Shown here: piece by piece, positions 12,041 through 44,997 of the stretch
How positions within the stretch are numbered: the stretch's first letter is position 1
Layout of the letters: each line of letters starts with the position of its first letter
Notes under the pieces: model-generated
What the model was told of the DNA's origin: nothing
Database searches by the model: none
The model's input: only the letters and a program-made list of their open reading frames with translations
Source: a virus
Lineage: Duplodnaviria > Heunggongvirae > Uroviricota > Caudoviricetes
Virus record (IMG/VR): IMGVR_UViG_3300050821_002969
Location: 1 to 64,000 of that record
DNA length: 64,000 nt
Direction: 5' to 3' (one strand)
Position numbers and translations under genes: made by a program

Positions 12041-12364
12041 CTACCACGACACGATGAGTCCATTAACGGAACCGCCACCGCCTACCGAAGCACCGGTTTC
12101 GTTTCCGCCCCCACCACCATCGTTTCCAAACTCTGGTTCGCTATAGAGTATATTGCTTCGCGCTAACGCCTCAGTCATGGCATTACCTTGGCTAGCGGCC
12201 AGACCCAACAACCACGGAATATTCGGTGGGCCACCTTCGCTAATCATTCCCTCGATGGCGGCTATCTCGGAATCTATGCCAGTAAATCCCGTATGCCACC
12301 AGATTACATCTGCCGTAGAATTGCCGAAATCTTGCTGGTTTTGCTGTTGTGGGGTTAGTGGCAT
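12041..12364 (-). CDS. Gly-rich hypothetical protein
   Basis: 107-aa ORF with a GGGGGNETGASVGGGGS tract. Confidence 0.3.
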   Translation of the reverse strand: MPLTPQQQNQQDFGNSTADVIWWHTGFTGIDSEIAAIEGMISEGGPPNIPWLLGLAASQGNAMTEALARSNILYSEPEFGNDGGGGGNETGASVGGGGSVNGLIVSW

Positions 12365-12422
12365 AATTTACATTTTATTGGAGTCGTGTTAGGAAGGTTT
12401 TGGCCGTTCAAAAAGAGCGGTG

Positions 12423-13010
12423 CTATGTCATGGCCTGCATTATCAACCGTTCTATTCTTTGTAGTTTTCTGTTTCTTCTCGTTGCCATTGCGTTGCATTT
12501 TTTACATTCGCCTTCGTGGTTCTTTCTTTTTGAAATGTTATCATCGTCTAGCTTGTGCCCATATTTGCAATATGTTGGCAATACAAAAGTTCTGCACTTA
12601 CGTCTCGAATTCAGAAAACTAGACCTCAGTAAACCTAGATCAATATCGCCGTTACGGTAGTCGGCAAACTTGGTTCCCTTTTTAAGATTACAGGGCAAGC
12701 AAAGTGGTTGAATGTTGCCGATATCGTTGGTCCCTCCAGCGCAAATTGGAATTACGTGGTCTGGAGTAAGGGCATCTTTGTCGGATTTACAACGGAGACA
12801 GGTATTGCCATATTCTTCGCATAATGCACCGAACTCAGCGGCAGTGAAATCGTTACCATCTTTTCTTCTGCGGCTAGCGGCGTAAGCCTTGACCTTGTTG
12901 GGATTTTTAAGATTCCACCGCTTGCGATACGTGCGCTGTAATTCCGCTCTCGTAAACTGTGATGTCTTTGGTCTTCCCATAAAACTTTTTGGCCGTTTCC
13001 GGTCGAGCAA
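12423..13010 (-). CDS. HNH endonuclease
   Basis: Contains CLRCKSDKDALTPDHVIPICAGGTNDIGNIQPLCLPCNLKKG, the HNH core. The C-terminus has an extra Cys-rich zinc-finger-like segment. Confidence 0.7.
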   Translation of the reverse strand: MLDRKRPKSFMGRPKTSQFTRAELQRTYRKRWNLKNPNKVKAYAASRRRKDGNDFTAAEFGALCEEYGNTCLRCKSDKDALTPDHVIPICAGGTNDIGNIQPLCLPCNLKKGTKFADYRNGDIDLGLLRSSFLNSRRKCRTFVLPTYCKYGHKLDDDNISKRKNHEGECKKCNAMATRRNRKLQRIERLIMQAMT

Positions 13011-13228
13011 ACGCCTCTCGCAAGGAAGTTTACCACGCGGATAAACTTACCGCCAACTTTCCGCTCCCATGGTTGGCGCAGCGCTAACGGCCAAAGTCTA
13101 TGCAGCCTTAAACGCGCTGGCAACCTTATCAAAGAACGCCAGTACGCGCTGCTTGATTAACGCCATAAAACCCAAATCCTCGTGCGGGTTCCACATATGG
13201 TTAATCTGTCCAATGTTGTTCTTTTGGA

Positions 13229-13597
13229 TCACGCCCAACTAGCCCATGCTGGAATTTTTTTAAAAGTATACGATTCGCTAGTTGTTGGATATGGAAACAG
13301 GAGCATTGATTCATGCGCGGTTACCGCACCGCCACATATGCGGCAAACTCCTGTCGATGCGCCGTTGTTTTGGAAGGGATGAGCTAGGTGGCGGCTTTCT
13401 ATGTCTCGATAACAAAGCCCGCCATGATCCACAATGCGTTGCTGTGCTTTTGGCGTAAGGCAATCCCATGGTACATCGCGGGGGATAGTTGTTCCCGCCC
13501 AATAACTCAATGGTTTATCTTGCCTAAATAGCACGGAAATAATCGGCAGCGCGGGAAGCGAACCAAACAACGCAGCAAAGAATTCGCGACGATTCAT
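13229..13597 (-). CDS. Tat-signal (twin-arginine) exported protein
   Basis: The N-terminus MNRREFFAALFGSLPALPIIS matches the Tat consensus R-R-x-F-F, followed by a hydrophobic h-region. Confidence 0.45.
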   Translation of the reverse strand: MNRREFFAALFGSLPALPIISVLFRQDKPLSYWAGTTIPRDVPWDCLTPKAQQRIVDHGGLCYRDIESRHLAHPFQNNGASTGVCRICGGAVTAHESMLLFPYPTTSESYTFKKIPAWASWA

Positions 13598-14055: not shown

Positions 14056-14667
14056 TCACACATGATTATGCCCTTGTATCGCAAAGTCGGCGTAGGTTGC
14101 GCCGTGCCATTCTAGTTCGGTAATGCGTTCACGCAGTTTTTCGTTTTCTGCCAACGCATAATATCTACGCTGATTGTGATTTTGTTCTTTTATTGTGGCC
14201 CAACGGACGTTTCCCTTTTCGTAATGTCCATCATTGTTGATTCGATCTAGAGAGTATTCAAGAGATGGCCGATGACCAACGTGGTCCAAAAATTCTTCAA
14301 ATGAATCAAATTTAAACCGTATTCCTCTCCCGCCATAACTTTCCCAGCATCGTGCATTCGGATTATTGCAGCGGTTTTTGGCGGCAGCGTAGCTTCTGTA
14401 TTCTGGGCCACCACTTTTGCCGTGAGTTACGACGTTTTTCATTACCCACTCCTTCTGGATACAATTACAACTTTTGGTTTTTCCGCTTTTTAAATCTCCA
14501 GCAAATACCGTAGTAACGGTTCCGCATTCGCATTGACAAGACCAAACAATCTTCCTACATTTAGCCCTACCAGCACACCAAAGCGCCAGCAGTTTACCGA
14601 ATTTTTTACCAGACAAATCCTCCATGTTGGCAAACATATGCTTGCCTCTTGGATAGCCTCTCTTCAT
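14056..14667 (-). CDS. HNH-type homing endonuclease (HNH_3-like with N-terminal Cys motif); paralog of 57929-58795
   Basis: Contains SLDRINNDGHYEKGNVRWATIKEQNHN, the HNH_3 signature. The N-terminal CQCECG...KSCNC motif mirrors CKCDCG...LSCGC in the 57929-58795 gene. Confidence 0.65.
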   Translation of the reverse strand: MKRGYPRGKHMFANMEDLSGKKFGKLLALWCAGRAKCRKIVWSCQCECGTVTTVFAGDLKSGKTKSCNCIQKEWVMKNVVTHGKSGGPEYRSYAAAKNRCNNPNARCWESYGGRGIRFKFDSFEEFLDHVGHRPSLEYSLDRINNDGHYEKGNVRWATIKEQNHNQRRYYALAENEKLRERITELEWHGATYADFAIQGHNHV

Positions 14668-14858: not shown

Positions 14859-15185
14859 TTACTTTTCTCCTAGCGAAGCAAGCCTTTTGGCTAGTTCTGG
14901 GGTTATTTGCGATTCTGTCGCTGTTCCCGATTCCGGTTCTTGCTTCTTTTTCCTACGCTCGTTGATGGCCAAGAATCTCTGCTTCTTTCGCAGAATGTCT
15001 AGCTCAAGAAGATATTTTATGCTAGTCTTGCGTTCCTCCGCTGAGGCCTCGCGCTTGCCGCTGGCAATGTCCCTAGCTAGAGATTCAGCAAAGGTAATAG
15101 CATCGCCGCGTTCTTTTCTTGCGTTGTGCGCTGGTTGAATCTTTACTACGTTAGTTTCCGCCAACCTTAACACCATCCTTGACAA
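14859..15185 (-). CDS. hypothetical charged protein
   Basis: 108-aa Lys/Glu-rich ORF. Confidence 0.3.
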   Translation of the reverse strand: MSRMVLRLAETNVVKIQPAHNARKERGDAITFAESLARDIASGKREASAEERKTSIKYLLELDILRKKQRFLAINERRKKKQEPESGTATESQITPELAKRLASLGEK

Positions 15186-15423
15186 TATAATCAGCCGCGC
15201 CTAGATAAAATCTCGACGGGTGATCGTAGTTAAAAAGTTTGCGCACAATTGGAATGCTTGGGTTGTGCCGAATGCTACCAGACTCGAATTCTCTTTGTCC
15301 TTGCGAGCACCCCGTATCGCCACAGGACGCCATGGAGTCGCCAAATCGGGTATCGGAACACGCCATGGGTTGACCACACTCCCCGCAATGCAGCTTGCCG
15401 TCTTTGTAAACTGGATTCTTCAT
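15151..15423 (-). CDS. small Cys-rich hypothetical protein
   Basis: 90-aa ORF with CGECGQPMACSD...CGDTGC. Confidence 0.3.
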   Translation of the reverse strand: MKNPVYKDGKLHCGECGQPMACSDTRFGDSMASCGDTGCSQGQREFESGSIRHNPSIPIVRKLFNYDHPSRFYLGAADYIVKDGVKVGGN

Positions 15424-15794
15424 AACTTCTCTGTGGCTATAATCTTAATCCAATAGTGGACATCAGCGCCAATCCATCCGTACTGCGCGGTAACAAACTG
15501 GTCGCCAGTAGTTGGGGAATAGATAAGCCATTGCTGGTGTCCATCACCACAAGTCGGGCACGGTACGCTGCTAAATACTTGACCACTAGCCAGCTTAGGA
15601 GTGGCAATAAAGCATTCCCCTTGAATTGTATGGTCACATTTAACATCTAGGCGAATTGCGTCGCCCTTGTTGGAGCCTACGTTTACCGATAACCCCCAGC
15701 CGCCATGGTTGGTAATCTTAATCGTTGCGGAGTTGAATGTTGCTTGAGCAACGCAAAGAGTAGAAAACAATGCGATGTTGATTAGGTGTTTCAA
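15420..15794 (-). CDS. small secreted protein
   Basis: Signal peptide MKHLINIALFSTLCVAQA. Its stop overlaps the start of the 991-aa gene. Confidence 0.45.
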   Translation of the reverse strand: MKHLINIALFSTLCVAQATFNSATIKITNHGGWGLSVNVGSNKGDAIRLDVKCDHTIQGECFIATPKLASGQVFSSVPCPTCGDGHQQWLIYSPTTGDQFVTAQYGWIGADVHYWIKIIATEKL

Positions 15795-18766
15795 TGGATT
15801 CCTATGTTGGGGCCAACTCCAATGTTTGTGCCAACCGCACCGCCAACCACTACAGGGTTAAGTGGATAAACGCAAGTAAACGGCGCTGGCCCCACCCCGC
15901 TTCCATCTGGGGGAATTGCCATGACCGACAACGCACACTGCATAGCCGGATTCGGGTTTACTAATCCAGCCCATCCGGTACCAGACCCAGAACCAGCACA
16001 TTGCCCCGCGTTAAGTGCTGGTGCTCCGTTGTATTTGCCGACCGTGTTTAGTGTTCCGGCGCACTGAATTATTGTACCGCCAGAAATGTCGGGACCGATT
16101 AGGGGCCAGGGGTCGGATGCACGGAAGAATGCTGGTTTAGATGTGTACACCATCGAAGCAGGAAACACGTCCTCACCAATAGCCGTGTCGCCATAAATGG
16201 GGACTCCGCTTGGATATATGCTAGCCCCGGTCGGAGCCTCAGAGACGCTGTTGCAGTTACCCGCGCTAGCCCAGTTCGTGTCAAGCGCGTTCCCGCAGAA
16301 GCGCGTCGCCGCCGTAACGGAATTGTAATTGCCGAAATAAATAGAAGTTGAATCGGTCTTGTTGTCCACGGGTGGCCCGCCACCGGGAGACTCGCCAAGG
16401 TTGTCCACGTAAGTTGCGCCACCGTTGGTAAGCTTGTAATGTGTATGGTATCCGGGGGTGCCATATACGCCCGCAATGTCATTGTAGTAACGAGCAAAGG
16501 CAAAGTTTTCCAGCGAATTCGTAAACGCATTTAGCGGCGTAGCCGGAAGCGAATCCCACCCAGTCAGGAAATTACGGAATCCGGTAACCATGTCACACGT
16601 CCCATGGATGTCGTCGCAACTAATCTGATTACCAATATTCCCCTCGAAATAATCATAATAGTCTCCAGCGTGCTCCAACATCGCAGCAACCAATCCATTG
16701 CCAGCGGCGTTTGGGCTTGTTCCTACGATGAAGTTGTAGGCCAGTACCGTGCCCGATGAGCTTCCGTCGTTTATAAACGTCGTCTGGTGGATAATATTGT
16801 TGGCGATCAGATTGTTACCCGCAAGTTGCTGCCGTATTCCATAGCACGCAGGCTGCGTACCCGTGCATTGAAAAATGTAATTGCTTTCAAAGACGGAATT
16901 GGTCGTGCCATTCATGTTGATGGCGGAAATCTTCGTCTTGACCGTTCGCACGCCAGTCACCCAGCAGTGATAGCAGTAAGAGAACTCGATGCCGTAGTTC
17001 GGAGCCGTAGCGTTAGTCGTATCCAGTGACAGGTTCTCGATTCCTGCCTGAACAAGCGGTTGCACGATCCAGACTTGAAGATTACTTAATGCCGACCAGT
17101 TGCCTGCCAGAATCGGTGGAAAGATTGTGTAGACACTTCCGTTAACGGCAGTCGCGGTATGAATCTCCAGTTCATCGCGCTCCGCACGGCTACCGGCATC
17201 CGGCCCGTCCGCCGAGCATCCCGCGCCCGCCGAGTAGATGTCGCTGCAGACAAACCAGTTGCCGTTATCTATGTTTCCTCCCCCTGCGACCGTTCCACAA
17301 TTCGTGCCGCTGTAATTAGTATTGCAGCCATCAAGGAATAGTAGAGTTGGAGTTGTCGTACTGATTGACGCTGGACAGTTGCCGCTAAGGTTGGCGAGAG
17401 TTAACGTGGTCGCACCCTGAACCGGGCTTCCGGTAACAGTACATTTATTGGCGGGAGAGGAGAACGATGTAGTGTCGCTTGAGATTGCACAGATAAAAGC
17501 GGTCGCGCCTCCGCCTTGGCATCCGGCTGCGCTGGTTCCGCTATGTATCAAGAATGTGCTGTTCGCTCCCGAACCGCGCAAGACCACGTTTCCGGTAGTC
17601 GGAAACAATATTTGCCCATCGAGGGTAAACGTCCCCGCCCCGAGTAGTACATACTGGTTCGCGGTGCATCCGGCGAGTGCCGTGGTGATGGTACTAGCAT
17701 TACCCGTGTAGGCCGCGATAGTCGCCCCGCACTGTGTCCACGAGGTATCTCGTGGAGCGTCTCCAGGGAATCCAGATTGCGTCCAGTCCGCTCCTCGTGG
17801 ATAAGTCAGCACTCCATTCCACTCAGGGATCGGATTGAGGATCATCTGTAGAAACTGAGCGCCAGTGCAGGTCGTTGAGGCCGAACTGGTGCATTGCTCT
17901 AGGTCGGTATGCTGGACGTGAGCCGCCGATGTAGCCGCACCGTTAATATCTCCCCACTCCCATCCGGTAGGCTGACAACCGGCACTACAGGCCGTTCCGG
18001 GGGTTCCGCCTGTGGATTTGTAGGCAAACCCATAAAAGGTAGTATTGTCTGGGCTGGTTAGGGCGATGATTGTGCAACCAGCATTTACGGCGTCGGTAAT
18101 GGTAGTGATCGTTCCGGCGCACGCCCCCTTGAATTGGAAATATCGCCAGACTCGTATCCATGTAGCTACCGGAAAGGTAATTTTGCAATCACCGGCTGGC
18201 CAGCTATTTTGGCCGCACGTCCCTTCAAGGTTGTAGGCCATCTTCCCAGACACGCCAGGGTTGGTCATATTTGATAGAGCGGATACGCCAATGCCTGTTA
18301 GCGTCTCGTCGTCAAAGGTGCCAGTTGTGTTGAATACCTGCGAAACACAGGTTAAATCCCGTGCCCAAGCAACCTGCGTACCGGACATCGAGGGAAGCTC
18401 AAACGACATCAAGACTTGCGGAGTACCGCCTCCGACTGAAGTGTTGTAGTCAACCAGTTTAGCTTGCGAACCACCTGCATCTGTTGTTGGGAGCGCCCCA
18501 CAAAGAGACGAGGCTTGCGTAACTACTGTCAATGCCCCGTTTGACGCATTGTTGGTCCCAATCTGGACTGCATTCGATGAGGTAATCGCGTCACCGCTGC
18601 TGCCGTTATTGCCTGTTCGGAAACCATACCAACTATTTGAAAACCCGGCTCGCGATGCCGCAACCACGGAGCCATTGGTAGCGTTGGCCGCGTTCATTTC
18701 AGTCAGACCTTGGCCGAAACACAATCGCGCACCAAGCATTAGGAGCACAAGAAGACATCTACGCAT
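15791..18766 (-). CDS. Large secreted beta-helix-like fiber or tailspike-like protein
   Basis: 991 aa. Signal peptide MRRCLLVLLMLGARLCFGQ. The sequence is rich in N/G/T/S with repeated NxxxxG turns typical of right-handed beta-helix fiber and spike proteins. Confidence 0.5.
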   Translation of the reverse strand: MRRCLLVLLMLGARLCFGQGLTEMNAANATNGSVVAASRAGFSNSWYGFRTGNNGSSGDAITSSNAVQIGTNNASNGALTVVTQASSLCGALPTTDAGGSQAKLVDYNTSVGGGTPQVLMSFELPSMSGTQVAWARDLTCVSQVFNTTGTFDDETLTGIGVSALSNMTNPGVSGKMAYNLEGTCGQNSWPAGDCKITFPVATWIRVWRYFQFKGACAGTITTITDAVNAGCTIIALTSPDNTTFYGFAYKSTGGTPGTACSAGCQPTGWEWGDINGAATSAAHVQHTDLEQCTSSASTTCTGAQFLQMILNPIPEWNGVLTYPRGADWTQSGFPGDAPRDTSWTQCGATIAAYTGNASTITTALAGCTANQYVLLGAGTFTLDGQILFPTTGNVVLRGSGANSTFLIHSGTSAAGCQGGGATAFICAISSDTTSFSSPANKCTVTGSPVQGATTLTLANLSGNCPASISTTTPTLLFLDGCNTNYSGTNCGTVAGGGNIDNGNWFVCSDIYSAGAGCSADGPDAGSRAERDELEIHTATAVNGSVYTIFPPILAGNWSALSNLQVWIVQPLVQAGIENLSLDTTNATAPNYGIEFSYCYHCWVTGVRTVKTKISAINMNGTTNSVFESNYIFQCTGTQPACYGIRQQLAGNNLIANNIIHQTTFINDGSSSGTVLAYNFIVGTSPNAAGNGLVAAMLEHAGDYYDYFEGNIGNQISCDDIHGTCDMVTGFRNFLTGWDSLPATPLNAFTNSLENFAFARYYNDIAGVYGTPGYHTHYKLTNGGATYVDNLGESPGGGPPVDNKTDSTSIYFGNYNSVTAATRFCGNALDTNWASAGNCNSVSEAPTGASIYPSGVPIYGDTAIGEDVFPASMVYTSKPAFFRASDPWPLIGPDISGGTIIQCAGTLNTVGKYNGAPALNAGQCAGSGSGTGWAGLVNPNPAMQCALSVMAIPPDGSGVGPAPFTCVYPLNPVVVGGAVGTNIGVGPNIGIH

Positions 18767-20296
18767 TTATGGTCCTAACGGGAAGGTTCCCGAGATAAAA
18801 TTAACTTCAACGTCGTCTATCCAAATGTTGTGGCCTGCTGACTGGCTTTCACCGCCTGAAATACCTATTTGGACCGAGACGAACGGATTGTTACCGGATT
18901 CCGATGAGCAGGTAGCCGTGGAACCGACCTGCGCCCCGGTAGTGTCGTATATAGACAGGGAATCAAGAGCGCAGTTAGTTCCCGGAGTACACGCACCGGC
19001 ATTTGTAACCCCTTGCATCGTGAGCCAATAAACCGTGTTGGTTGCTATGGGGATGTTTACCGCAGAACCAGCGAATCTGCACTCTAGCCCTATGGTCAAC
19101 GCGGAGCCACTCAGATCGTGAATCTGTGGATTGACCGCATCGCTTGCACCCTGTAGGAGTTGCCCGAGTGAATAAGCATTGCTTACGGATTCATTCTGCG
19201 GGATGTCGGTTTTGATCCAATAGCCCACCGATACCGTGTTGACGCTTTGAGGAAGCGACCATTGAATGTAATCTCCTGCCGTTCCTGTGGCGTACTGAAA
19301 ACCAAGGCTTCCTGAACCCGTGTAGGAGGTCGCTCCTATTTGCTGATTCGTTAATAAATTATGCAGTTGCCCGGAGGTTGATCCGGTAATCGACGCACCA
19401 GGATTATGAACTACCCATGTCGCAGGTCCAGAAAGAGTAGCCCCGCCCGCTGGCCCGTGTATCGAACTTGTGAGGGCTGCGACTGTAGGAGCGACTGTAT
19501 TTGTTAGCCCCTCAAAGTCGATCAAGTCGTTCGCTGAGCCTTGCGCTGCGGATTTAGAGAGACACACTATTGCCGCACTATAGAAGTTGGCAGTATTTTG
19601 CGTCATTGTTGCCGTCTGGACTCCGCTCAATCCCGTGACGGTATTTATGTGCTCTGAGGCTCCGACGAAATTTCCGGCACCAAACGTGTACTTGGCGTCA
19701 AGGGTGTAACCGGCCCCTGCCGCTATGGTTATAAAATTAGTCATCTGGTCCATCGACGCAACGCAATATTCCGTAGACGAACCCACCGCGAAGGTGGTTG
19801 AAACGCTCATCGTGGTCGTGGAACCAATCCCTCCGCCTGTCACATCGGCGGTGTTGACGTTGGCGAGTTCATACACCCCGGCTCCCAGAAAGCTACTCGA
19901 TCCTGGGCATGTGATAGTAAATGAATTGCTGGTGCCGACGTTTTCCGCCACGTACACGGCTGCCCAATTTGGGTTTGTTCCCGGTTGATTCTGTTGCTGC
20001 CAGAGCATGAACGTATCCCCTGCTCCCGTAACCGAGGTACATTGGCTTCCGTTGGAAAAAGTCATAAAGACTAGCGTACTGCCAGCGGTCGGAGCCTGTG
20101 CTGTGAAAGTGCATGTGACTGGAGAGCTGGCTCCCGTGCAGGCGTTGGTCTGTATCAGGGCAGGGACAGCCACACTTGGCGTTCCGTTGATATATCCGTT
20201 TGGGCCAATATAACCCTTCGGCCCGATATAGCCTTGCGCTACGAGCAGTACCGATGCCGCGAGGATCACCGCGATATGGAGCCAAACGTGTTTCAT
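18767..20296 (-). CDS. Secreted fiber-like protein with collagen-like GYIGP(K/N) repeats
   Basis: 509 aa. Signal peptide MKHVWLHIAVILAASVLLVAQG is followed by GYIGPKGYIGPNGYI. The rest is T/S/G-rich. Confidence 0.5.
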   Translation of the reverse strand: MKHVWLHIAVILAASVLLVAQGYIGPKGYIGPNGYINGTPSVAVPALIQTNACTGASSPVTCTFTAQAPTAGSTLVFMTFSNGSQCTSVTGAGDTFMLWQQQNQPGTNPNWAAVYVAENVGTSNSFTITCPGSSSFLGAGVYELANVNTADVTGGGIGSTTTMSVSTTFAVGSSTEYCVASMDQMTNFITIAAGAGYTLDAKYTFGAGNFVGASEHINTVTGLSGVQTATMTQNTANFYSAAIVCLSKSAAQGSANDLIDFEGLTNTVAPTVAALTSSIHGPAGGATLSGPATWVVHNPGASITGSTSGQLHNLLTNQQIGATSYTGSGSLGFQYATGTAGDYIQWSLPQSVNTVSVGYWIKTDIPQNESVSNAYSLGQLLQGASDAVNPQIHDLSGSALTIGLECRFAGSAVNIPIATNTVYWLTMQGVTNAGACTPGTNCALDSLSIYDTTGAQVGSTATCSSESGNNPFVSVQIGISGGESQSAGHNIWIDDVEVNFISGTFPLGP

Positions 20297-20302
20297 CGTT
20301 CC

Positions 20303-21112
20303 TTACCGGGCGGCAATTTGTTGATACCCGAAAAAGTCTACGGTCTCAATATCCGCGACTGATCCACCAGTTTCAACTATACTGAACCACGGAGAGAGGA
20401 CGACTGTTGGCGGGGTAGCGGTTACCGTGCAGCCAGCCGCGCAAACCGTAATCGTTGATACTGCTGGCGTAGTCACGTCCTGTACCTTGAGCACGATGTT
20501 GCCAACCGTTCCGCTGCTCATCGTGACATGCAAGTAATCGGCGGCGGTCGGCGTGATCGTCGTGGCCCCGCAGGTTTCGGACGACGCCGAATCGGAGCAC
20601 AAGTTGATGAACGTGTCGGTGCCTTGCAGGAAGCGGATGTAAACGCCGTTGGTCGGAATCGCCGTCGCGGAATCTACCGTCGCGAATCCAACGCGATAGC
20701 TTCCCGTGGCGATCTGGTTGACTTCAAATATCCATTCCGCCTGCCAGTTGGTTGAGTTGCCTGGGAATAGAGTTCCAACCGCGTTCCCGAGTGAGATTCC
20801 AACGCCGTTGGTAGCAGTCGTGTTCGTGGTCAACGTAATCAAGCATGGATGGTTGGCGACCGATGCCACGGCAGCGACGGGGTTCGTGCCAGCCACGATG
20901 ACCGTCTTATCCCATCCCAGTTGACCAATGGTCGCCGTTACCGATGGCGTGTTGCCGCAAAAGTCATCCAAGAGATTGACGTTGGGCTGGATGAACTGTC
21001 CGTTAGCTCCTGGAACGGGCGACATGTTCTGCGCCGATGCCGGGTGGCGACCAACAACTAGCAAACTAGTTAATGCCACGCCAACAACCATTGCTAAAAT
21101 AAGTTTCTTCAT
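20303..21112 (-). CDS. secreted structural protein
   Basis: 269 aa. Signal peptide MKKLILAMVVGVALTSLLVVGRHPASAQ. Confidence 0.4.
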   Translation of the reverse strand: MKKLILAMVVGVALTSLLVVGRHPASAQNMSPVPGANGQFIQPNVNLLDDFCGNTPSVTATIGQLGWDKTVIVAGTNPVAAVASVANHPCLITLTTNTTATNGVGISLGNAVGTLFPGNSTNWQAEWIFEVNQIATGSYRVGFATVDSATAIPTNGVYIRFLQGTDTFINLCSDSASSETCGATTITPTAADYLHVTMSSGTVGNIVLKVQDVTTPAVSTITVCAAGCTVTATPPTVVLSPWFSIVETGGSVADIETVDFFGYQQIAAR

Positions 21113-21113
21113 T

Positions 21114-24100
21114 CTAGTTCTCCTGATTTAAAGTGCATGACGCATTCGCCAGCACGGTGATTGCGTTCGTTCCGTTTGCCGCTGTTTGCAATGTCAGCGG
21201 TATACCAGAGGCGGTTGAGCCGTTTTGAATCTGCGCCCATACATGCTGAACCGAAGTGGCTGCTACGCTCGCAGACGCTCCTGTCTTCGTACTGTACGCG
21301 GTTTGAGCCAACGTACTAATCTGACTCCAAATTCCCGCCGTACCAAGATCGCCTTCGGCTATAAGGCTATACGACGTAGCCGTGCCGGGGCCGCCTATGC
21401 AATATTGAATGGTCGCACTCGCTGCCAGCGTCATTGGGACTTCACAACGTAGCAAATAATTCTTATTCGCCGCAAGTGGCCAACTCATACCAGTAACATT
21501 GGTGCAGGTTGCGGAGGTCTGTGCGCCCATCGCTGCCGTAGTTACGCCGATACTTTTGTCGATAACTCCCGGAGGCCCATACTGCGTACCAACGGCAAGA
21601 GATTGAGTTGCGTTCGCGAAAGTAGCCGGTAGGGCCGTGGGGTTGAATATGCCAATGGCATTCAGCGGTGTCTGAATTACTGGCGACCCAGTAGCCACAA
21701 CGACCTGAATAGTGTTAATCGTCATTCCCGCAGGTCCGGTGTACGCCAATGTCTTAGCGTTGTCGGTTAACAAGGACGCCGCTAGTTGTCCAGCGGTGCC
21801 GTTGGCCTTGGGAATGATATTCGCCGCGATGACCGTCGTTTCTGCTAGTCCACATCCAACATTTGTGGCGTTCGCCCAAAACTCCAAGCAGTGACTTGTG
21901 GAGTCGGCTACAAGCCCATCTGTGCTGGCTCCAATGCTCGCTGGTTCCGTACCCTCTGTACCAAAGATTGCGAAGCCGGTACCTGGAGTCGTAACCGTTG
22001 GAGCGGTGCCAAGCTTCAAGAGTCCAGTCGGCGTGAAAGCGGCCACGATAGTCTGACCGGAGATCGCCCCGGCCACAACCGTTGCCCCGGTTCCAATGTC
22101 AAGCAAATCGCCTTGGGTTGTGGTGCCGTTAATGTTGACCGTGGTCTGTCCCGTGGAAGTGCCAGGAGAGTTAAATATCGCCGTAATAGAAGTATTGTTG
22201 TTGCTTGAGTTCGTGTTACGAAATTCTATCGGTGCGGACAGGTTAACCGTAGATGTTCCTGAAAGTATTGTGCCGCCTACAACGGCAGGCAGTTGCACGC
22301 TTGGCGCACTCGTGGACGCACTCATGTTGAGTGTCATCGCCGCCGCGCCAGCGTTAGTCGTATCTTTGCGAACCACGTTGGAAGAAAGGAACCCAGAGTC
22401 GTGTAGTAGAACTTTACTAGAGGCTACCGAAGCATCTATCACATCTCCGGTTACGGGAACAGACGCCGTGGGGAATATACCAAAGATCGAGTCCGCACCG
22501 CTGTTTCCGTGGTAGTTGCTGTTGGTTGTGTCGTAGTCAATAACTCCCGCTGCCGTAGCTGTGTTCGTGGTCGTCGATGGCACCTTGAATGCTGCCGTTC
22601 CGGTTGCAGCACTAAGATCAAATATCGTGGTCGATATCCCGCTAAACGTGTGGGTAGCGTAGGTCAGATCAGCCGCACCCGTCAGTGCCGCGCCAGAACC
22701 GCCAGAAATCGCTACCTGTCCAGATGTTGCGCTCTCAATCGCGCATGTAGCGTTTAGGGCGCAACTTTGGCCATTGACCGTTGTTGCCCCAGAACCCGGA
22801 AGATCGCCCACAACGATTGCCGAGAAGTTCCCGATGCCGCCAGTAGCAGTGGCGTGAAGAACGTGGGAAGTCGTGGTATCTGAGTTACCGCCTAGCACGT
22901 TGGTTGTCGTGTTTGGAAAAGTCAGCGTAACCGCGCCGCTAGACGCCGGATAGCTAGATGTTGTGATGTTGGCCCCGGTGCCGGTTAGAATCTGATTCGT
23001 TGTGGCGTTTATGCTGGCCGCACCGCTAGCCGCCACGGAAAACTCCTTGGTGCCACCAGTAAGCGTTCCGTTAGTAACCGTTGATCCAGCGTATAGCCTG
23101 AATAAATCCCCTGTGCCAGAAACACTATTCGCCACTAAGCCGATACATCCAGTAGATGTTCCGGCGCAATTAGAAATCAACCCAACGCTCGCGTTATTAT
23201 TGGTTGAGTTTGTGTCTTGGATTACGATGTACGAAGTCAGTGTAGCCGTTTCAACTCCATTAAAAGTGTAATTGTCTCCAGCGCCGGATTCCGAACGGGT
23301 AACTTGCGCAGTGGAACCAGTCACGGCATCGAGAGAAGGAGCGCCAGCGGTTGTGGGGATTGTTACTCCGGGGCTGAATTGAATAAGTGGAAGCGTAGTA
23401 GACGCGGTGGCCGTTACCCCGTCAGGAAGCGTCCACGCCCCAGAAGTAGCAATAACAATTCCAACCGTTTCACCTTGGGCGTTGGTACAAGTTGCCGTAC
23501 CACCTGAGTCGGTAACTTTTCCACCTGTACCAGAAGCACATACGGTGTGGTTAAGAGTTACCGCCGCGCTAGCATTAACGAAAGTCTGTCCTTCCCCAAA
23601 CAGAGTAACAACGGTATTTGAGTTGACCGCCTCCGCTACTCCCAAAATATTGTTAGGAGATGCGCCGCAATCGTTAACCGTCATAGCTGAACCAGTGCCA
23701 CACTGTAGGTTCCAAAGGGTTGAAGTTCCGCCGCCCTTAACGTAGTTAATTCCAGCAATAAACGGTCCCTGTAGTCCCTGTGTTGCTCCCGTGCTAGCCC
23801 CGGCAAGTAATTCAATTCCTCCAGCTTGACTGGCGGCGTTTGTAGCAGCATTGTTACCACCGCGGATAAGCGTGCCGCCGCCCTGTGAAGTAGCTCCGCC
23901 TGCCCCGGTTTCGTCGGCCCCACGTAGTGTTAATCCTCCAAGGATAGAGTTTGCAGAGGCATCGCCGCCACCCTGAATTGTGGAAGTTTGGGTTGTCGTC
24001 GAGTTGCTGAGTGTATTGCTAGATTCTAGAAAGTCCGAGTTAACCGTGTTTCCGTTGGTGTCAAATTTCGTAACGCGGTTAAGGTTAACTGTTCCGGTAG

Positions 24101-27100
24101 ACAACTGAAGTAACGCCCCGGTTCCCTGTTCTCCGGTAACCCCAGAAATAGACAGGGTATTGGTGCTCAGCGTAAGCGGAGAGGTAAAGGTAGCCGTTAG
24201 ATCGCTAACCGCTGGTTGGGCACAAGTAAATACGCCAGCAGTTGAAAGTACGTCCATCCACTGGTGGGCAGAACAAGTCTTGGCTACGGAGGTTGTACCA
24301 ATAGTTGCGGCGTTACCAATTTCGTGGACTCTTAAATCGGTAGAGTCGAACCAAATCAAAGTACCAGATGCGGGAGCACTTGGTGCCGCGCTAGACGGTA
24401 GAGAGATTTCTCCCGTACCCGGAACGGTTGCCGAACCAGAGGCAAATCCTGCGGCAAACAAGTTCCCCGTAGCTCCACACGCCCCACCGCTGCTTACGTC
24501 TACCTGTCCAGCCGCACCACGGCAAAGCCCAGTATCCGCCGCGCCGGAACCGTTGGTCCAGATAATCGAGCTACCAAGATAGAGATTTCTCCAACGAAGC
24601 GAGGCGGAACCAAGGTCAAGACCATTATCTACGCCAGCACCGGGAATCAATGAAGCGTTTACAGCTACACCTGAAAGATTACTAAGGGCTTGGTTTGCTC
24701 CAGACGCACCAGAGTTTAACTGTTGTACCCAAGTATTACCGGCGTAGCACTCATTTAAACTTTGACCATGGGTTTGGTCGGTAGCAAAATACAAATCCCC
24801 TGCGGTACACGTCGCGGGAATGTTGGCAATGAGTCCGGTCTGCACAACGCCGGTATGCGTGGCTAGGCGGAAGTTAATAGCGCCGGTAGCGGTTACGTTT
24901 CCCGTTGCGGCGGATAGACTGTAGGTTGCGGAACCTCCAGCATATCCGGCCAAGGTTCCGTTGTAAAGATTGGTACCCTTGGTCATGTCCACGGAGTTTA
25001 GGTTGTTAAACGCGCTCTCGTTTCCATCTAAAAAGTAGAAACCAATGCCATTTCCGTTGTGAGCGCAGGTCATGGTATTGCCGTTAACGTCATCCTTGAC
25101 AGCGTTCATTACCGCAGTGTTGTTGCAAATAGAATTATAAAATTGTAGCGTTCCCTGAAAGGTTGAACCAATATGCAAAACGTTTGTACACGGAGCGGCA
25201 GATGGACACCCGTTAATTTCGTGTAGCGAAACTGGTCCGGTAACGCCGGTTCCCGGTGGAGCAGCGTTAACCGAGTCAACCAATATACCGTCTGCCGTAG
25301 TGGTACAAGAAACTGGGCCGGGGCTACCAGATTGGCATCCTTCCATATGTAGTTCGTGTAGATCAAAACCCCCCATCTGGAAAGTAGAAAGCACCCTGTC
25401 TGGCACGTTGGTAACGTGGAACAATCCAGATGTTTGCTTTGTCCCGTTGCAGTGGTTGCCGTTATTGGTTACGCGACGCACTTCTGTTCCGGTGCCATAC
25501 ATTTCAAATGGAACCACGCCAGACGCCGAGCAGTTGGCGTCGGACGAATACCCTACGTTAAGGTTTTCATATGGACCGCTGTTTACTGGCATGTTTAATA
25601 AGAAACCAATAGCGCAATTTTGGATTGTTACATCCTTAGCCCAAGAGTTTTCCTGCCCCCATAAATCCTCGAATCCGATAGCCTCAATAGCGCTGCCGCA
25701 ACCAATAAACGACCCCTGTAGGCGAGAAAAGAAATTTGACGTTCCGCTTAGCGTTCCACTGTTGATTCCGGTATTGTCGCCAAGCTCAACTACGGGATGG
25801 CGCAAGTTAACGGCTTGTGCAGTGGGGCCAATTGCCAGTGCTGGCTGAATGTTGACGGTTATGGTTCCCGGAGACGGCAGTGAATAGAACTGCGAATTAA
25901 GCGTTCCCGTATTTGGTAGTGTGCTACCCGCGCAAGGAGCGCCGGTGCCGGTACATTTGGTAACGTAATATACGGTTCCATCTCCAGCAATGAATAAGCG
26001 GTCGCCGGGAGCGATTAAAATGTTTTCCCCGCCGCCAGCCTTGGTTAAGCTAACCGTTGTTTGTGTGCTGGTTCCGGTCGCGGTAATAGCTCCCGTACCG
26101 GGGAAGCTGGAAGAATTCAGGATCATGGTTCCATTGTTTCCAGCGCCACCGCCATTTTGTCCAACAAGGTTTTCTACGACACCGATAACCTGCTGGAAGT
26201 TGCCGATATTAAAGCCAAGGTCGGTCTGTAGCGCATCGCCTCCATCTAGAAGCCAGTTACCTTGTGGTTGGTCAATGTTGGTGGTTGTGCAGTTTTGTAC
26301 CGTAGTTCCATGCTCACCGCGAGAGTCTACAGACTGAAATCCGAGGCCAGCCGTTTGTAGTGCCGCCTCTATGTTGTTATAGCGAATACATAGATTGGCT
26401 CCTGCGCTTGGATCATCGCGAGTGTCAGACAACTGCTTTGTCTGTGCAACATAAGTTGTTCCTGCTCCAGATGCTACCGGCACCTGTCCTTGAGCCGAAG
26501 CGTTTGGCAATGTAGCGCTTGCGCATACCCATGCAGAACCGTTCCACTGAAGCACCTGAAGCGAACTGCATGTACCCGTTAGGCCAATAGAACCGGCCCC
26601 GCTTAGGGTAATTGGAAACGTATTACTTAATAGCGAAGAAACATCGGTTCCGGTAGCAATGCTTGGAACGCCCGTGCCTGTAGTGTTTTTTAGGATTCCG
26701 GTTGCAAGTCCAGCTAGCGAAACGCCATTTAGTCCAGAGTTGGTCATTACGCCAGCGTTGGTAATGCTTGAGTCGCCAGATAGGGCAACATCTGCTGGCA
26801 GGTTGCTACCACTGCCAATGTAAAGGTGGGCGCTGGTTAAAGCGGCAGCGATTGGTTGGGCGCTACCATTTGTACCGAGAATCTTGGCGGAAGTTGGCAC
26901 GGTGGTGCCGTTAATGGCGGTGGTGGTCGTCGCGCAACTTCCGGCAGCCGTCGTTGTGTCTCCCGTTAACGCTGGTGCTTGGCCACAAGACAACGAGCCA
27001 GACAGGTTGGTAAACGCTGGCTGGGCCTGAGTAAATAAACCCGTAGTTTGTGAGTAAGAAGTCAGAAAGTTGTTAATCGCAGCGCCAAGAGTTTGCGGCC

Positions 27101-27542
27101 ATGTTAGCGTGGTTCCATTAGAACCAAACACCGGCAAGTGGTTGGTCGTGTTGAAGGCTATAACTGCGTCGGTAGTCGGAGCCGCGCCTGCCGCATTTGG
27201 AAGCACGATTCCAGCCGTGACAGAAGCGGCGGCAGCGTTAAAAATACCAGTAGAGCCAAGGGTGGTCGTGTGGCCGGAATATTGCAAGTCGGTTAGCGTG
27301 GTTCCAGCAAACGTGCCGGTAGAGTTGAACTGAAACGAAGCGCTCGATCCACCCGGAGCCGAACCGGCACCGCCGCAAACTCCGCCAGAGTCTTGGATTA
27401 CCGTAGACGAGGCAAACGACACGCAGTGACCAACGGTAATAGCGCCGGTAGTTGAAATGGTACCGCCACCGCTAATTTGTGCCAGTGCAGCGCATTGCAA
27501 TACAAGCAAAGCCGCAAGTACGTTAAATGTACGCTTCAGCAT
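21114..27542 (-). CDS. Giant secreted Thr/Gly/Ser/Ala-rich fiber or adhesin-like protein
   Basis: 2142-aa uninterrupted ORF. Signal peptide MLKRTFNVLAALLVLQCAALAQ. Extreme T/G/S/A/N composition consistent with repetitive beta-rich fiber or adhesin domains. Confidence 0.55.
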   Translation of the reverse strand: MLKRTFNVLAALLVLQCAALAQISGGGTISTTGAITVGHCVSFASSTVIQDSGGVCGGAGSAPGGSSASFQFNSTGTFAGTTLTDLQYSGHTTTLGSTGIFNAAAASVTAGIVLPNAAGAAPTTDAVIAFNTTNHLPVFGSNGTTLTWPQTLGAAINNFLTSYSQTTGLFTQAQPAFTNLSGSLSCGQAPALTGDTTTAAGSCATTTTAINGTTVPTSAKILGTNGSAQPIAAALTSAHLYIGSGSNLPADVALSGDSSITNAGVMTNSGLNGVSLAGLATGILKNTTGTGVPSIATGTDVSSLLSNTFPITLSGAGSIGLTGTCSSLQVLQWNGSAWVCASATLPNASAQGQVPVASGAGTTYVAQTKQLSDTRDDPSAGANLCIRYNNIEAALQTAGLGFQSVDSRGEHGTTVQNCTTTNIDQPQGNWLLDGGDALQTDLGFNIGNFQQVIGVVENLVGQNGGGAGNNGTMILNSSSFPGTGAITATGTSTQTTVSLTKAGGGENILIAPGDRLFIAGDGTVYYVTKCTGTGAPCAGSTLPNTGTLNSQFYSLPSPGTITVNIQPALAIGPTAQAVNLRHPVVELGDNTGINSGTLSGTSNFFSRLQGSFIGCGSAIEAIGFEDLWGQENSWAKDVTIQNCAIGFLLNMPVNSGPYENLNVGYSSDANCSASGVVPFEMYGTGTEVRRVTNNGNHCNGTKQTSGLFHVTNVPDRVLSTFQMGGFDLHELHMEGCQSGSPGPVSCTTTADGILVDSVNAAPPGTGVTGPVSLHEINGCPSAAPCTNVLHIGSTFQGTLQFYNSICNNTAVMNAVKDDVNGNTMTCAHNGNGIGFYFLDGNESAFNNLNSVDMTKGTNLYNGTLAGYAGGSATYSLSAATGNVTATGAINFRLATHTGVVQTGLIANIPATCTAGDLYFATDQTHGQSLNECYAGNTWVQQLNSGASGANQALSNLSGVAVNASLIPGAGVDNGLDLGSASLRWRNLYLGSSIIWTNGSGAADTGLCRGAAGQVDVSSGGACGATGNLFAAGFASGSATVPGTGEISLPSSAAPSAPASGTLIWFDSTDLRVHEIGNAATIGTTSVAKTCSAHQWMDVLSTAGVFTCAQPAVSDLTATFTSPLTLSTNTLSISGVTGEQGTGALLQLSTGTVNLNRVTKFDTNGNTVNSDFLESSNTLSNSTTTQTSTIQGGGDASANSILGGLTLRGADETGAGGATSQGGGTLIRGGNNAATNAASQAGGIELLAGASTGATQGLQGPFIAGINYVKGGGTSTLWNLQCGTGSAMTVNDCGASPNNILGVAEAVNSNTVVTLFGEGQTFVNASAAVTLNHTVCASGTGGKVTDSGGTATCTNAQGETVGIVIATSGAWTLPDGVTATASTTLPLIQFSPGVTIPTTAGAPSLDAVTGSTAQVTRSESGAGDNYTFNGVETATLTSYIVIQDTNSTNNNASVGLISNCAGTSTGCIGLVANSVSGTGDLFRLYAGSTVTNGTLTGGTKEFSVAASGAASINATTNQILTGTGANITTSSYPASSGAVTLTFPNTTTNVLGGNSDTTTSHVLHATATGGIGNFSAIVVGDLPGSGATTVNGQSCALNATCAIESATSGQVAISGGSGAALTGAADLTYATHTFSGISTTIFDLSAATGTAAFKVPSTTTNTATAAGVIDYDTTNSNYHGNSGADSIFGIFPTASVPVTGDVIDASVASSKVLLHDSGFLSSNVVRKDTTNAGAAAMTLNMSASTSAPSVQLPAVVGGTILSGTSTVNLSAPIEFRNTNSSNNNTSITAIFNSPGTSTGQTTVNINGTTTQGDLLDIGTGATVVAGAISGQTIVAAFTPTGLLKLGTAPTVTTPGTGFAIFGTEGTEPASIGASTDGLVADSTSHCLEFWANATNVGCGLAETTVIAANIIPKANGTAGQLAASLLTDNAKTLAYTGPAGMTINTIQVVVATGSPVIQTPLNAIGIFNPTALPATFANATQSLAVGTQYGPPGVIDKSIGVTTAAMGAQTSATCTNVTGMSWPLAANKNYLLRCEVPMTLAASATIQYCIGGPGTATSYSLIAEGDLGTAGIWSQISTLAQTAYSTKTGASASVAATSVQHVWAQIQNGSTASGIPLTLQTAANGTNAITVLANASCTLNQEN

Positions 27543-27545
27543 TGA

Positions 27546-27953
27546 TTACCCCGCCACTCTACCGGGTGCAAACGACACGGAATATTCACAAAAAACCTGC
27601 ACAGATTGAGCAGCGTTAATGTTTATATTCAAATCAAAACCAACCCCGCTGCTAGAATTACGGGTCGTCTCAAATAGAAATCCCGGAGGGGTTGCGCGTT
27701 CTGTCCAGTTTCCGGGAACGGCTGGAATGTAGAACGGTCCTGCAAGGTTACTAAAGTTGGAATCTTGCCATGTAACCAGTAACGGATTTACAGCGTTCTG
27801 GTTCTGGACGTTAAAGCTGTGGATGCGAACCACGGAACCTCTTTGCTGTCCGTGGAGCGCCGCTTCAGAAATAAGCGCATAGGGGTTTTCAACGATTTCA
27901 GTGATACCGCTTCCGCTGACCGTTACGTTAGCTGACTGGATAAAGGGGGCCAT
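27546..27953 (-). CDS. hypothetical structural protein
   Basis: 135-aa ORF immediately downstream of the giant gene. Confidence 0.35.
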   Translation of the reverse strand: MAPFIQSANVTVSGSGITEIVENPYALISEAALHGQQRGSVVRIHSFNVQNQNAVNPLLVTWQDSNFSNLAGPFYIPAVPGNWTERATPPGFLFETTRNSSSGVGFDLNININAAQSVQVFCEYSVSFAPGRVAG

Positions 27954-28339
27954 GATTCCTCTTTCCCTTCGGTTTTTTCATAATCGCGCTGAATGGTTAA
28001 CGTAAGCAGGCTAACCGCAAGCATTAACTTGCCAAATTTTTCTTCTACGTTTCCGCGAAATTCGGCGGAATCTTTCTGTAGGTCTGGGAGCCTAAAGCTT
28101 TCGTCGAATACCGATAAACGCTTTAAAACTTCAAAACATTCTTCAACCCTATTGCTAGTCCATGCAGCATTCCACGCTTCTTGCGCTATATCTTTTTGTT
28201 CTTTGTTTAGCTCTCGTTGTTCCGCCCACCGATTGAATGATCCAACGCGAGATAACTGCATCTTGGCTAGGCGACGAAAGCGCTGGAGACGTTCATTGCT
28301 TGGTAGCGCTTCGGCTGTAACCGTTTCCAAAACCTGCAT
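27923..28339 (-). CDS. hypothetical protein
   Basis: 138-aa ORF, charged and helical-looking. Confidence 0.35.
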   Translation of the reverse strand: MQVLETVTAEALPSNERLQRFRRLAKMQLSRVGSFNRWAEQRELNKEQKDIAQEAWNAAWTSNRVEECFEVLKRLSVFDESFRLPDLQKDSAEFRGNVEEKFGKLMLAVSLLTLTIQRDYEKTEGKEESWPPLSSQLT

Positions 28340-28840: not shown

Positions 28841-29122
28841 TTAAGCGGCTGGTTCTTGCTGCTCTTTGGCTTTGGCGATTTTTACCTTTACCGTTTCTTC
28901 TTCGTGAACGATGTCGATAATGACGCCGTTATGCTCGTAGTGCTCTTTCTTGTGTCGCTTCATTAGAGCCAGAAGTTGCGCCTTTTGCTCAACTTCCTCC
29001 GCCAATAAAGCCTGTCGTTGGTCGCGTGTTTCAGCGTAACCCTCGGCTGCGGTTTCTAGTTCGGTAATCGCCGCATCCTCCTGTCCCGGCAAGCGCGGCT
29101 GTTTTTGTTTTTTAGTAGACAT
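28841..29122 (-). CDS. acidic coiled-coil protein, translationally coupled to the SPFH gene
   Basis: 93 aa, Glu/Lys-rich. Its start shares base 29122 with the stop region of the SPFH gene. Confidence 0.4.
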   Translation of the reverse strand: MSTKKQKQPRLPGQEDAAITELETAAEGYAETRDQRQALLAEEVEQKAQLLALMKRHKKEHYEHNGVIIDIVHEEETVKVKIAKAKEQQEPAA

Positions 29123-44909: not shown

Positions 44910-44911
44910 GG

Positions 44912-44995: not shown

Positions 44996-44997
44996 CG

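Follow-up and report, generated by a model that had tools for sequence, protein, structure and literature searches.

The DNA analysed here, a 64,000-nucleotide (nt) stretch of a tailed-phage genome (positions 1 to 64,000 of IMG/VR record IMGVR_UViG_3300050821_002969; hereafter the window), carries a cassette in which five consecutive minus-strand genes, one of them for a giant protein of 2142 amino acids (aa), encode products that begin with Sec-type signal peptides and contain many paired cysteines. The accepted view is that the fibres and spikes of tailed phages are folded and assembled inside the cytoplasm, and a run of large fibre-like or spike-like proteins with Sec signals is, as the original prediction stated, unusual for such phages. 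The best reading of the sequences is that the cassette encodes a variable set of host-surface-glycan recognition proteins and depolymerases that would mature in the periplasm; glycan targeting is well supported for the 991-aa protein and suggested for the other four. The cassette challenges the cytoplasmic-assembly picture, pointing either to late assembly from two compartments or to a large set of secreted enzymes and adhesins. Its parts, a tailspike-fold depolymerase and Sec signals, are of known kinds, but their combination is undescribed in the literature and data searched. The host of this ~100-kb soil phage is probably a member of the Acidobacteria, and probably a diderm of Terriglobia type.

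Signal peptides and cysteines of the cassette

The gene order is 135-aa protein (no signal peptide), 2142-aa giant, 269-aa, 509-aa, 991-aa, 124-aa, and 90-aa protein (no signal peptide). Neighbouring genes are separated by gaps of 0–6 nt or overlap by 4 nt, and the whole is therefore one translationally coupled block. The five signal-peptide open reading frames (ORFs) lie on the minus strand, and the coordinates and N termini first described for them were confirmed. The cassette features are as follows.

27546..27953, minus strand: 135-aa protein; no signal peptide, one Cys; stop codon 3 nt before the ATG of the giant
21114..27542, minus strand: 2142-aa giant; signal peptide MLKRTFNVLAALLVLQCAALA followed by Gln; 40 mature Cys
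27480..27542, minus strand: predicted signal-peptide coding region of the giant, residues 1–21
20303..21112, minus strand: 269-aa protein; signal peptide MKKLILAMVVGVALTSLLVVGRHPASA followed by Gln; 6 mature Cys
18767..20296, minus strand: 509-aa protein; signal peptide MKHVWLHIAVILAASVLLVA followed by Gln; 10 mature Cys
20189..20230, minus strand: 18-bp repeat in the 509-aa gene, 2.3 copies, encoding GYIGPKGYIGPNGY
15791..18766, minus strand: 991-aa protein; signal peptide MRRCLLVLLMLGARLCFG followed by Gln; 32 mature Cys; N-terminal domain and β-helix
17837..18709, minus strand: phage-specific N-terminal domain of the 991-aa protein, residues ~20–310
15857..17821, minus strand: right-handed β-helix domain of the 991-aa protein, residues ~316–970
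15420..15794, minus strand: 124-aa protein; TTG start overlapping the upstream stop; signal peptide (M)KHLINIALFSTLCVA followed by Gln; 4 mature Cys
15151..15423, minus strand: 90-aa Cys-rich, zinc-ribbon-like protein; no signal peptide; kept in sister phage L003; ends the coupled block

Signal-peptide status rests on a heuristic for the n-, h-, and c-regions combined with conservation in homologs. By the heuristic, 9 of 73 minus-strand ORFs are signal-peptide-like, and five of these nine are the consecutive cassette genes, a run for which arithmetic from the same counts gives a chance probability of p ~6e-4. The h-regions of the five proteins span 8–18 residues, a length that marks them as of the signal-peptide rather than the membrane-anchor type. 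Residues at positions -3/-1 are A/A, A/A, L/A, C/G, and C/A, with Gln next in each case; because the residues at these positions are small, cleavage is predicted before the Gln (A-Q or G-Q). These peptides had been described as ending in AQ or GQ; the Gln would belong to the mature protein rather than to the signal peptide.

Homologs carry the same signal. Each of the three full-length 991-aa homologs has it, as do all 11 homologs of the giant, all six 509-aa homologs whose N terminus is complete, and ~31 of the best 40 proteins sharing the domain of the 269-aa protein. When the 991-aa protein and its homologs are aligned over the N-terminal domain, the hydrophobic core proves to be variable, but every sequence keeps the [AG]-Q-G junction. 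The attributes of a Sec signal cleaved by signal peptidase I, namely n/h/c organization, small residues at -3/-1, and conservation despite drift, were found for all five proteins. The lipobox pattern [LVI][ASTVI][GAS]C is absent from all five, the signal-peptide Cys being preceded by L, Q, or L, and inspection of the sequences revealed no outer-membrane β-barrel signature in any of them.

The cysteines give independent statistics. The mature Cys counts are all even (4, 32, 10, 6, and 40 from the 124-aa protein through the giant), most cassette-protein cysteines lie in pairs 3–30 residues apart, and the 40 of the giant form 20 close pairs. Across 61 aligned sequences of the 991-aa family, the pairs C346/C367, C507/C517, and C944/C965 show little or no substitution. 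When 22 signal-peptide proteins were compared with 18 signal-less tail or fibre-like proteins from this lineage, related contigs, and the cultured Tunturiibacter phage Tunturi 3, the median was 2.48 Cys per 100 residues with a signal peptide vs 0.45 without (Mann–Whitney p = 4.6e-8), and the Cys count was even in 21 of the 22 signal-peptide proteins. The clearest single result is a natural experiment: a domain of ~390 aa is shared at 44% identity (E = 4e-86) between a signal-less 783-aa protein of the relative L127 and residues 1154–1544 of a 1729-aa signal-peptide protein of L129, and the four Cys of the exported L129 copy are S, N, A, and S in the signal-less L127 copy. The low Lys+Arg content of the cassette proteins was considered as a further sign of export and discarded, as signal-less fibres of Tunturi 3 are equally low.

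Collectively, the heuristic, the conservation in homologs, and the cysteine statistics bear out the prediction of Sec-type signal peptides on five consecutive proteins; the observation is real and not due to chance. Because export signals and many paired cysteines occur together, the five proteins probably fold outside the cytoplasm.

Two small members of the block have counterparts in sister phages. The 135-aa gene occupies the same position there and its product is 75% identical in L003; the 124-aa protein is 61% identical to a signal-peptide protein at the same position in L003. The start of the 90-aa gene overlaps the stop of the 124-aa gene (ATGA). A CPTC (CxxC) motif is also present in the exported 124-aa protein; signs of a thioredoxin fold were not found in it, and a phage-encoded periplasmic thiol-disulfide helper would fit the cassette.

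Domains and relatives of the cassette proteins

The AlphaFold2 model of residues 320–970 of the 991-aa protein is a β-helix with a predicted local distance difference test score (pLDDT) mostly above 90. Its best Foldseek matches (E ~1e-9) are phage tailspikes and capsule depolymerases of the P22 type (4y9v, AP22 gp54; 4ru4, LKA1 gp49; 7w1c, the Klebsiella K1 lyase; and 9k4a, K64-1 S2-4), followed by RbmB, GH87, GH110, and alginate-modifying enzymes; all 37 matches in the PDB at E <= 1e-3 are β-helix glycan enzymes or tailspikes. One homolog matches PF13229, and D, E, H, and R columns are invariant in the family alignment. The model thus predicts a parallel β-helix of the tailspike/depolymerase type. 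Like tailspikes, the protein would combine a right-handed parallel β-helix of ~650 residues with a separate N-terminal domain and belongs to a cassette that varies between sister phages. In contrast, sequence identity to tailspikes is only 8–12%, the N-terminal domain has no detectable relation to known particle-binding domains, and known tailspikes are cytoplasmically folded, poor in cysteines, and made without a signal peptide, whereas the 991-aa protein has a Sec signal and 32 paired Cys. When the 61-sequence alignment served as a profile against PDB sequences, all matches were at chance level.

The closest relatives of the helix are cellular. Residues ~316–970 are homologous to proteins of ~700 aa in Acidobacteriota, and a scan of one genome per species found 80 homologous chromosomal loci, nearly all from this phylum and on contigs of up to 7.3 Mb, where essentially every match covers only residues ~305–960. 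Of the 80 loci, 56 have polysaccharide-synthesis genes of two or more classes within 6 kb, and 51 adjoin Wzx or Wzy; a signal peptide precedes the domain, by a median of 26 residues, in 47 of the 60 homologs with complete N termini. Given this cluster context and these signal peptides, the cellular relatives look like exported glycanases of their own exopolysaccharide (EPS)/O-antigen cluster. The phage version differs by a domain of ~300 residues inserted between signal peptide and helix; this N-terminal domain, modelled with pLDDT below 50–60, occurs in three full-length phage-type homologs only and in none of the 80 chromosomal ones. The tie between phage depolymerases and host EPS-cluster glycanases suggests domain traffic between host and phage, with the signal peptide travelling along.

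Exported enzymes of this kind are known from other bacteria. WceF of Pantoea stewartii is a stewartan-trimming glycanase with a tailspike-like fold, a role that has been shown experimentally (PMC7949094). WceF and RbmB of Vibrio cholerae (9ozl) are both exported β-helix enzymes encoded in or near their own polysaccharide genes, like the ~700-aa Acidobacteriota homologs; WceF has a Tat (twin-arginine translocation) signal, whereas the signals of the window and Acidobacteriota proteins are of Sec type. Unlike WceF and RbmB, the 991-aa protein is phage-encoded, lies in a block of late phage genes, and has the additional N-terminal domain of ~300 aa. WceF was not among the best 50 structural matches, and the PDB sequence profile search returned nothing significant.

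An 18-bp tandem repeat (15800–15835) encodes the hexapeptide motif VGTNIGVGPNIG at the extreme C terminus of the 991-aa protein, and a similar hexapeptide motif, GYIGPKGYIGPNGY, stands just after the signal peptide of the 509-aa protein; such repeats could be a short docking or oligomerization motif.

The giant consists of 57% T, G, S, A, and N and only 2.1% K+R. It was described earlier as almost pure low-complexity β-repeat material, which is correct as to the compositional bias and overstated as to the rest: self-BLAST of the giant detected no internal repeats, and its sequence entropy is 3.5–4.0 bits per residue. Residues ~370–900 of the giant might form a β-helix. Homologs of ~2100 aa in sister phages retain the N-terminal part and diverge in the C-terminal part. 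The mature domain of the 269-aa protein (residues ~45–265) recurs as the C-terminal domain of 186 proteins of 230–1777 aa, most of them with a signal peptide, and Pfam gave nothing on nine proteins with this domain. The 509-aa protein belongs to a small family of ~420–560 aa with a signal peptide wherever the N terminus is complete. A LamG/ConA-like lectin domain common to the 269-aa protein, the 509-aa protein, and the N-terminal domain of the 991-aa protein was considered and rejected: hhalign assigned a probability of 2.8% to the 269-aa vs the 509-aa family, and there were no BLAST cross-matches.

A collagen-like protein would have a long unbroken Gly-X-Y run, typically of tens of triplets, conserved across its family. 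The stretch of the 509-aa protein that had been called collagen-like is a hexapeptide repeat with only five G-X-Y triplets, arising from the 2.3-copy 18-bp repeat and missing in all 12 homologs, which leaves the name without support. A 264-aa cassette protein of L004 has only its first 41 residues in common with the 509-aa protein, and its counterpart stretch, AVIGGKAVIGGK, is not Gly-X-Y.

Pfam, PHROGs, and NCBIfam gave no match for the five proteins or their 135-aa neighbour, and none of the five matched a lysozyme, amidase, or peptidase family. No match was obtained when 50,697 deposited phages were searched by tblastn with the 991-aa, 2142-aa, and 269-aa proteins, nor in scans of the viral collection that used the 991-aa protein or the rightmost HNH gene of the window. 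Looking up the exact sequences of window proteins also gave no entry. The earlier labels "structural proteins" and "tail fibres" were an assumption, which the absence of any family, profile, or PDB sequence match leaves unsupported, as does the presence of a separate signal-less tail module in relatives.

In sister phages the 135-aa gene and the N-terminal part of the giant are kept, and the genes downstream of the giant are replaced by those for other signal-peptide proteins, so that cassette content is swapped while the flanking genes remain the same. This combination of conserved N-terminal and variable distal parts with cassette exchange among close relatives is typical of receptor-binding proteins. 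Small signal-peptide proteins accompany the large ones, of 124 aa in the window and of 125 and 121 aa in sister phages. In L001, a distant relative of 117 kb, the interval from the lysis genes to the terminase encodes signal-peptide proteins of 1241, 237, and 982 aa; L046 encodes a 2401-aa homolog of the giant, with signal peptide, directly after its tail and internal-protein genes; and L129 has a run of signal-peptide, Cys-rich proteins just before holin-like genes. A protein of L003 annotated at 1041 aa appeared at first to be a Cys-rich cassette protein lacking a signal peptide, a candidate rejected as a mis-called start: the gene (L003 16387–19554) truly starts 14 codons upstream, with the N terminus MKRLIWFLLLGAASMAHA followed by Thr, and the annotation probably hides a signal peptide.

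Conventional tail genes are also present in this lineage. The capsid of L127 is 86% identical to that of the window, and downstream of it lies a complete tail module whose proteins are all signal-less and Cys-poor; its terminase, portal, capsid, nozzle, acetyltransferase, and Gln-rich protein have orthologs in Tunturi 3. Because L127 has this complete conventional module, the cassette appears to be an addition to an ordinary tail. Within the module, the C-terminal ~100 residues of the 783-aa protein (L127 10001–12352) and the N-terminal ~106 residues of its 320-aa neighbour (12357–13319) share 40% identity, which looks like a local duplication.

Two cultured Acidobacteria phages have cassettes of the same kind. 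In Tunturi 1, gp12 (1190 aa), gp13 (675 aa), gp14 (919 aa, "tail spike"), gp16 (149 aa), and gp17 (1184 aa, "virion structural protein") bear A-Q- or A-T-type signal peptides, and gp12, gp13, gp14, and gp17 have 20, 10, 20, and 32 mature Cys; gp12–17, whose genes are flanked by that for the tail protein gp11 and by the lysis genes, include the only large spike-like proteins of the genome. In Tunturi 4, gp111 (from an upstream start), gp113, and gp114 have similar signal peptides and cysteines and are encoded immediately upstream of the terminase, as in the window. Tunturi 4 gp111 (L132 30076–33171) is annotated from 30433; its ORF opens at 30076 with an N terminus nearly identical to the gp113 signal peptide, and its start is probably mis-annotated, hiding the signal peptide. 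The cassettes of Tunturi 1 and Tunturi 4 (PP887698 and PP885687) resemble that of the window in their runs of large proteins, A-Q-type signal peptides, dense paired cysteines, and similar positions; they differ in lacking BLAST-level similarity to the window proteins and in belonging to different lineages and morphotypes. Positional orthology of Tunturi 1 gp12–17 with the fibres of Tunturi 3 was considered and dropped, as no homology is detectable between these phages. The paper describing the Tunturi phages makes no mention of signal peptides and contains no proteomics. This kind of cassette recurs in several phage lineages, two of them cultured, and is wider than the window.

From the periplasm to the virion or the surroundings

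These data are consistent with the following model, which narrows the roles first listed for the proteins (surface modifiers or adhesins, virion components, or a conversion module) to glycan-targeting, periplasm-matured proteins that may or may not be members of the virion. The Sec signals would be cleaved, the five proteins would enter the periplasm of a diderm host, and their Cys pairs would be oxidized to disulfides, a first step that we consider very probable. The proteins would then target host surface polysaccharide: the giant would serve as a fibre-like scaffold, the 991-aa protein would contribute a depolymerase domain from the family to which the secreted enzyme of Acidobacteriota Wzx/Wzy EPS/O-antigen clusters belongs, and the 269-aa protein would be a widespread C-terminal, tip-type domain standing on its own. 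The signal peptides would be kept as the price of using extracytoplasmic, disulfide-dependent domains, presumably because these would not fold in the reducing cytoplasm. When the holin breaches the inner membrane, the periplasm-matured proteins would meet particles assembled in the cytoplasm and would dock to them through their conserved N-terminal parts as the outer receptor-binding/depolymerase apparatus of the virion, while C-terminal parts and gene content would be swapped between sister phages as host glycans change.

Docking after the holin has joined cytoplasm and periplasm is a tentative proposal, with its probability just short of even. It is biochemically plausible because tailspikes and fibres are added last and can be added in vitro, and it is favoured by the conserved N-terminal modules, the gene context in L046, and the gene content of Tunturi 1. 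The evolution of the cassette, as far as sequence comparison can tell, resembles that of host-specificity genes. The model as a whole, docking included, is the best explanation we have, and we hold it with slightly less than even confidence.

Late tailed-phage proteins that leave the cytoplasm are known among lysis enzymes, namely the Sec-exported and signal-anchor-release (SAR) endolysins exemplified by Lys44 of phage fOg44 and the P1 Lyz type (PMC6116005). Like these, the cassette proteins would use the host Sec system and gather outside the cytoplasm before lysis. Unlike these small muralytic enzymes, they have no muralytic domain, reach 2142 aa, and are depolymerase- or fibre-like. In filamentous phages, g3p and g8p are virion proteins with Sec signals, and the periplasmic domains of g3p are disulfide-bonded and recognize the host; inoviruses, however, assemble by extrusion through the envelope and without lysis, whereas the window belongs to a tailed phage with terminase and portal, whose capsids must assemble in the cytoplasm.

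Several points weigh against docking. The cassette has been added to an apparently sufficient virion plan, with fibre-like proteins in the conventional slot of L127, and Tunturi 3 has no such cassette at all. The cassette proteins show no similarity to the tail proteins of Tunturi 3, L127, L046, L041, or L129, and the cellular β-helix homologs are non-virion enzymes. In the literature searched, Sec or SAR signals of tailed phages are reported for endolysins only, with no exported fibres, spikes, or virion proteins. The AlphaFold2 model of residues 301–1200 of the giant, from a nine-sequence alignment, is unusable (pLDDT 34). The tail module considered here is that of the relative L127, ~26 kb of the phage genome lying outside the sequence analysed.

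Some of the same observations would suit proteins that are exported and oxidized but never enter the virion, acting instead as soluble or envelope-associated enzymes and adhesins. Such proteins could cut nascent EPS or O-antigen in the periplasm and, after lysis, strip or bind the glycan of neighbours and debris, thereby helping progeny to escape and to reach new hosts. The β-helix family consists of secreted EPS-cluster enzymes functionally like the stewartan-trimming WceF, free halo-forming phage depolymerases are known, and no cassette protein has a sequence link to a known virion anchor domain. Cassettes adjoin lysis genes in L001, L129, and Tunturi 1, relatives possess a full tail module whose proteins lack signal peptides, and Tunturi 3 does without a cassette. 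However, diffusing enzymes would have little evident need of a conserved fibre-like protein of 2142 aa, of small lectin-like proteins, or of conserved N-terminal modules; a mosaic of conserved N-terminal and variable C-terminal parts is typical of proteins that dock to a conserved partner; other candidates for a large spike seem to be lacking in Tunturi 1; and the L046 homolog of the giant is embedded at the end of the tail-gene block. We regard purely secreted function as a serious possibility, with the balance tipped against it.

Exported phage proteins that stay in the envelope are represented by lambda Lom, T5 Llp, and Cor of phi80/T1, small outer-membrane proteins or lipoproteins that are encoded beside tail-fibre genes and act in exclusion or as morons. 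By analogy, the cassette proteins might mask, cleave, or otherwise alter the receptor glycan and so block adsorption, including that of the phage's own progeny. The likeness lies in signal-peptide proteins encoded among or beside host-specificity genes: the cassette's position beside, and covariation with, specificity-type genes fits the Llp, Cor, and Lom pattern, the signal-peptide proteins of 124, 125, and 121 aa have the right size, and a β-helix enzyme could destroy the receptor from within. Unlike the single small Lom, Llp, and Cor proteins, however, the cassette is a coupled block of five without lipobox or outer-membrane β-barrel signature, and the giant and 991-aa proteins resemble a fibre and a spike rather than masks. 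Export of 4,000 residues would also be costly for a phage that is apparently virulent, with 24 tRNAs, many homing endonucleases, and no integrase in the 64-kb window. Surface remodelling for superinfection exclusion is accordingly improbable. Least probable is that there is no export at all and that the hydrophobic N termini are buried, or are uncleaved signal-anchor-type segments for assembly or tethering in proteins that fold and assemble in the cytoplasm like ordinary fibres: the h-regions of the 509-aa and 269-aa proteins are long (13–18 residues), but n/h/c organization with small -3/-1 residues, an invariant [AG]-Q junction amid a drifting h-region, the same signal directly before the domain in 47 of 60 chromosomal homologs, even and paired cysteines five times denser than in signal-less relatives, and their loss from the signal-less copy of the L127/L129 domain all speak for cleavage and export.

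If the docking model is true, virion assembly would be split over two compartments, a new route for Caudoviricetes, and phages would directly reuse host extracytoplasmic glycan-processing domains. That several lineages of Acidobacteriota tailed phages build a Sec-exported, disulfide-bonded receptor-binding/depolymerase apparatus that docks only after holin action is possible, although we lean mildly against so broad a statement. There are practical consequences as well, in that annotators may wrongly discard receptor-binding candidates with signal peptides as "not structural", and biotechnological production of such depolymerases in the cytoplasm would probably be unsuccessful. Because cultures of Tunturi 1 and Tunturi 4 exist, the question is testable now in an abundant and poorly understood soil phylum.

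The rest of the window

The 64-kb window is part of a large tailed-phage genome of ~100 kb. Nearly all of its genes are on the minus strand, including those for the terminase large subunit (7131–8837), portal (3776–5896), primase/helicase (34495–36135), and a replication initiator; the capsid gene is truncated by the left edge. The closest deposited phage is the podovirus Tunturiibacter phage Tunturi_3, with terminase identity of only 24%. Two window proteins have identical copies on a contig of 103,362 bp, and soil metagenomes hold near-identical or sister genomes of 100–103 kb. Scans for promoters and terminators gave chance-level results. Other features of the window are these.

54322–54870: endolysin candidate, GH108 and PG_binding_3, without signal peptide
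56883–57722: PAPS-reductase-like gene
31398–32159: DUF7873 protein (E = 8.5e-65)
5962–6687, 9013–9516, 12423–13010, 14056–14667, 40571–41131, 57929–58795, 63395–63967: homing-endonuclease-type genes

Just upstream of the cassette (29122–30930), and in the same place in sister phage L003, lies a gene for a 602-aa membrane-anchored SPFH/Band 7 protein. SPFH scaffolds are organizers of membrane microdomains, and a link of this protein to export or assembly of the cassette proteins is conceivable. Between its replication and SPFH genes (4520–5926), L003 encodes a TROVE/Ro60-like protein with a vWA domain that has no equivalent in the window.

Four more small signal-peptide proteins, with homologs in sister phages, are encoded at 10712–11125, 11141–11581, 37132–37455, and 52780–53385. 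The last, which is unrelated to the cassette proteins, is the only one found with a true lipobox (LVAC), and its gene is close to that of the endolysin candidate; the 11141–11581 signal peptide requires an internal Met start (MRKFLILFLCSVAFAQ). The N terminus of a 122-aa protein at 13229–13597, MNRREFFAALFGSLPALP, resembles a twin-arginine (Tat) signal, and that of Tunturi 3 gp49 is MNRRQLFKGAAALVAATVLP; judging from these N termini, the window phage and Tunturi 3 may each encode a Tat-exported protein.

Downstream of the capsid in the near-identical relatives L007 (15105–19340) and L040 (11129–12525) is a sugar-modification cluster comprising a glycosyltransferase/methyltransferase fusion, an NAD-dependent epimerase, methyltransferases, and a second glycosyltransferase. 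Since the cassette proteins are rich in Thr and Ser, phage-directed glycosylation of virion or exported proteins is possible.

The G+C content is 0.51–0.55 over the cassette (16000–28000) vs ~0.48 elsewhere, and the AT skew differs too; the shift may reflect the Gly/Ala/Thr-rich composition of the proteins or DNA from a host of higher G+C. The minus strand also carries 24 tRNA genes (44644–51982) for many amino acids (including 4 Arg, 3 Leu, 2 Gly, and 2 Gln), an unusually high number for a phage of ~100 kb; Tunturi 3 has 3. The homing-endonuclease-type genes, at least seven of the GIY-YIG, HNH, and endonuclease VII-like types, include one between terminase and portal and several between cassette and terminase, and sister phages have different genes of this type at different sites.

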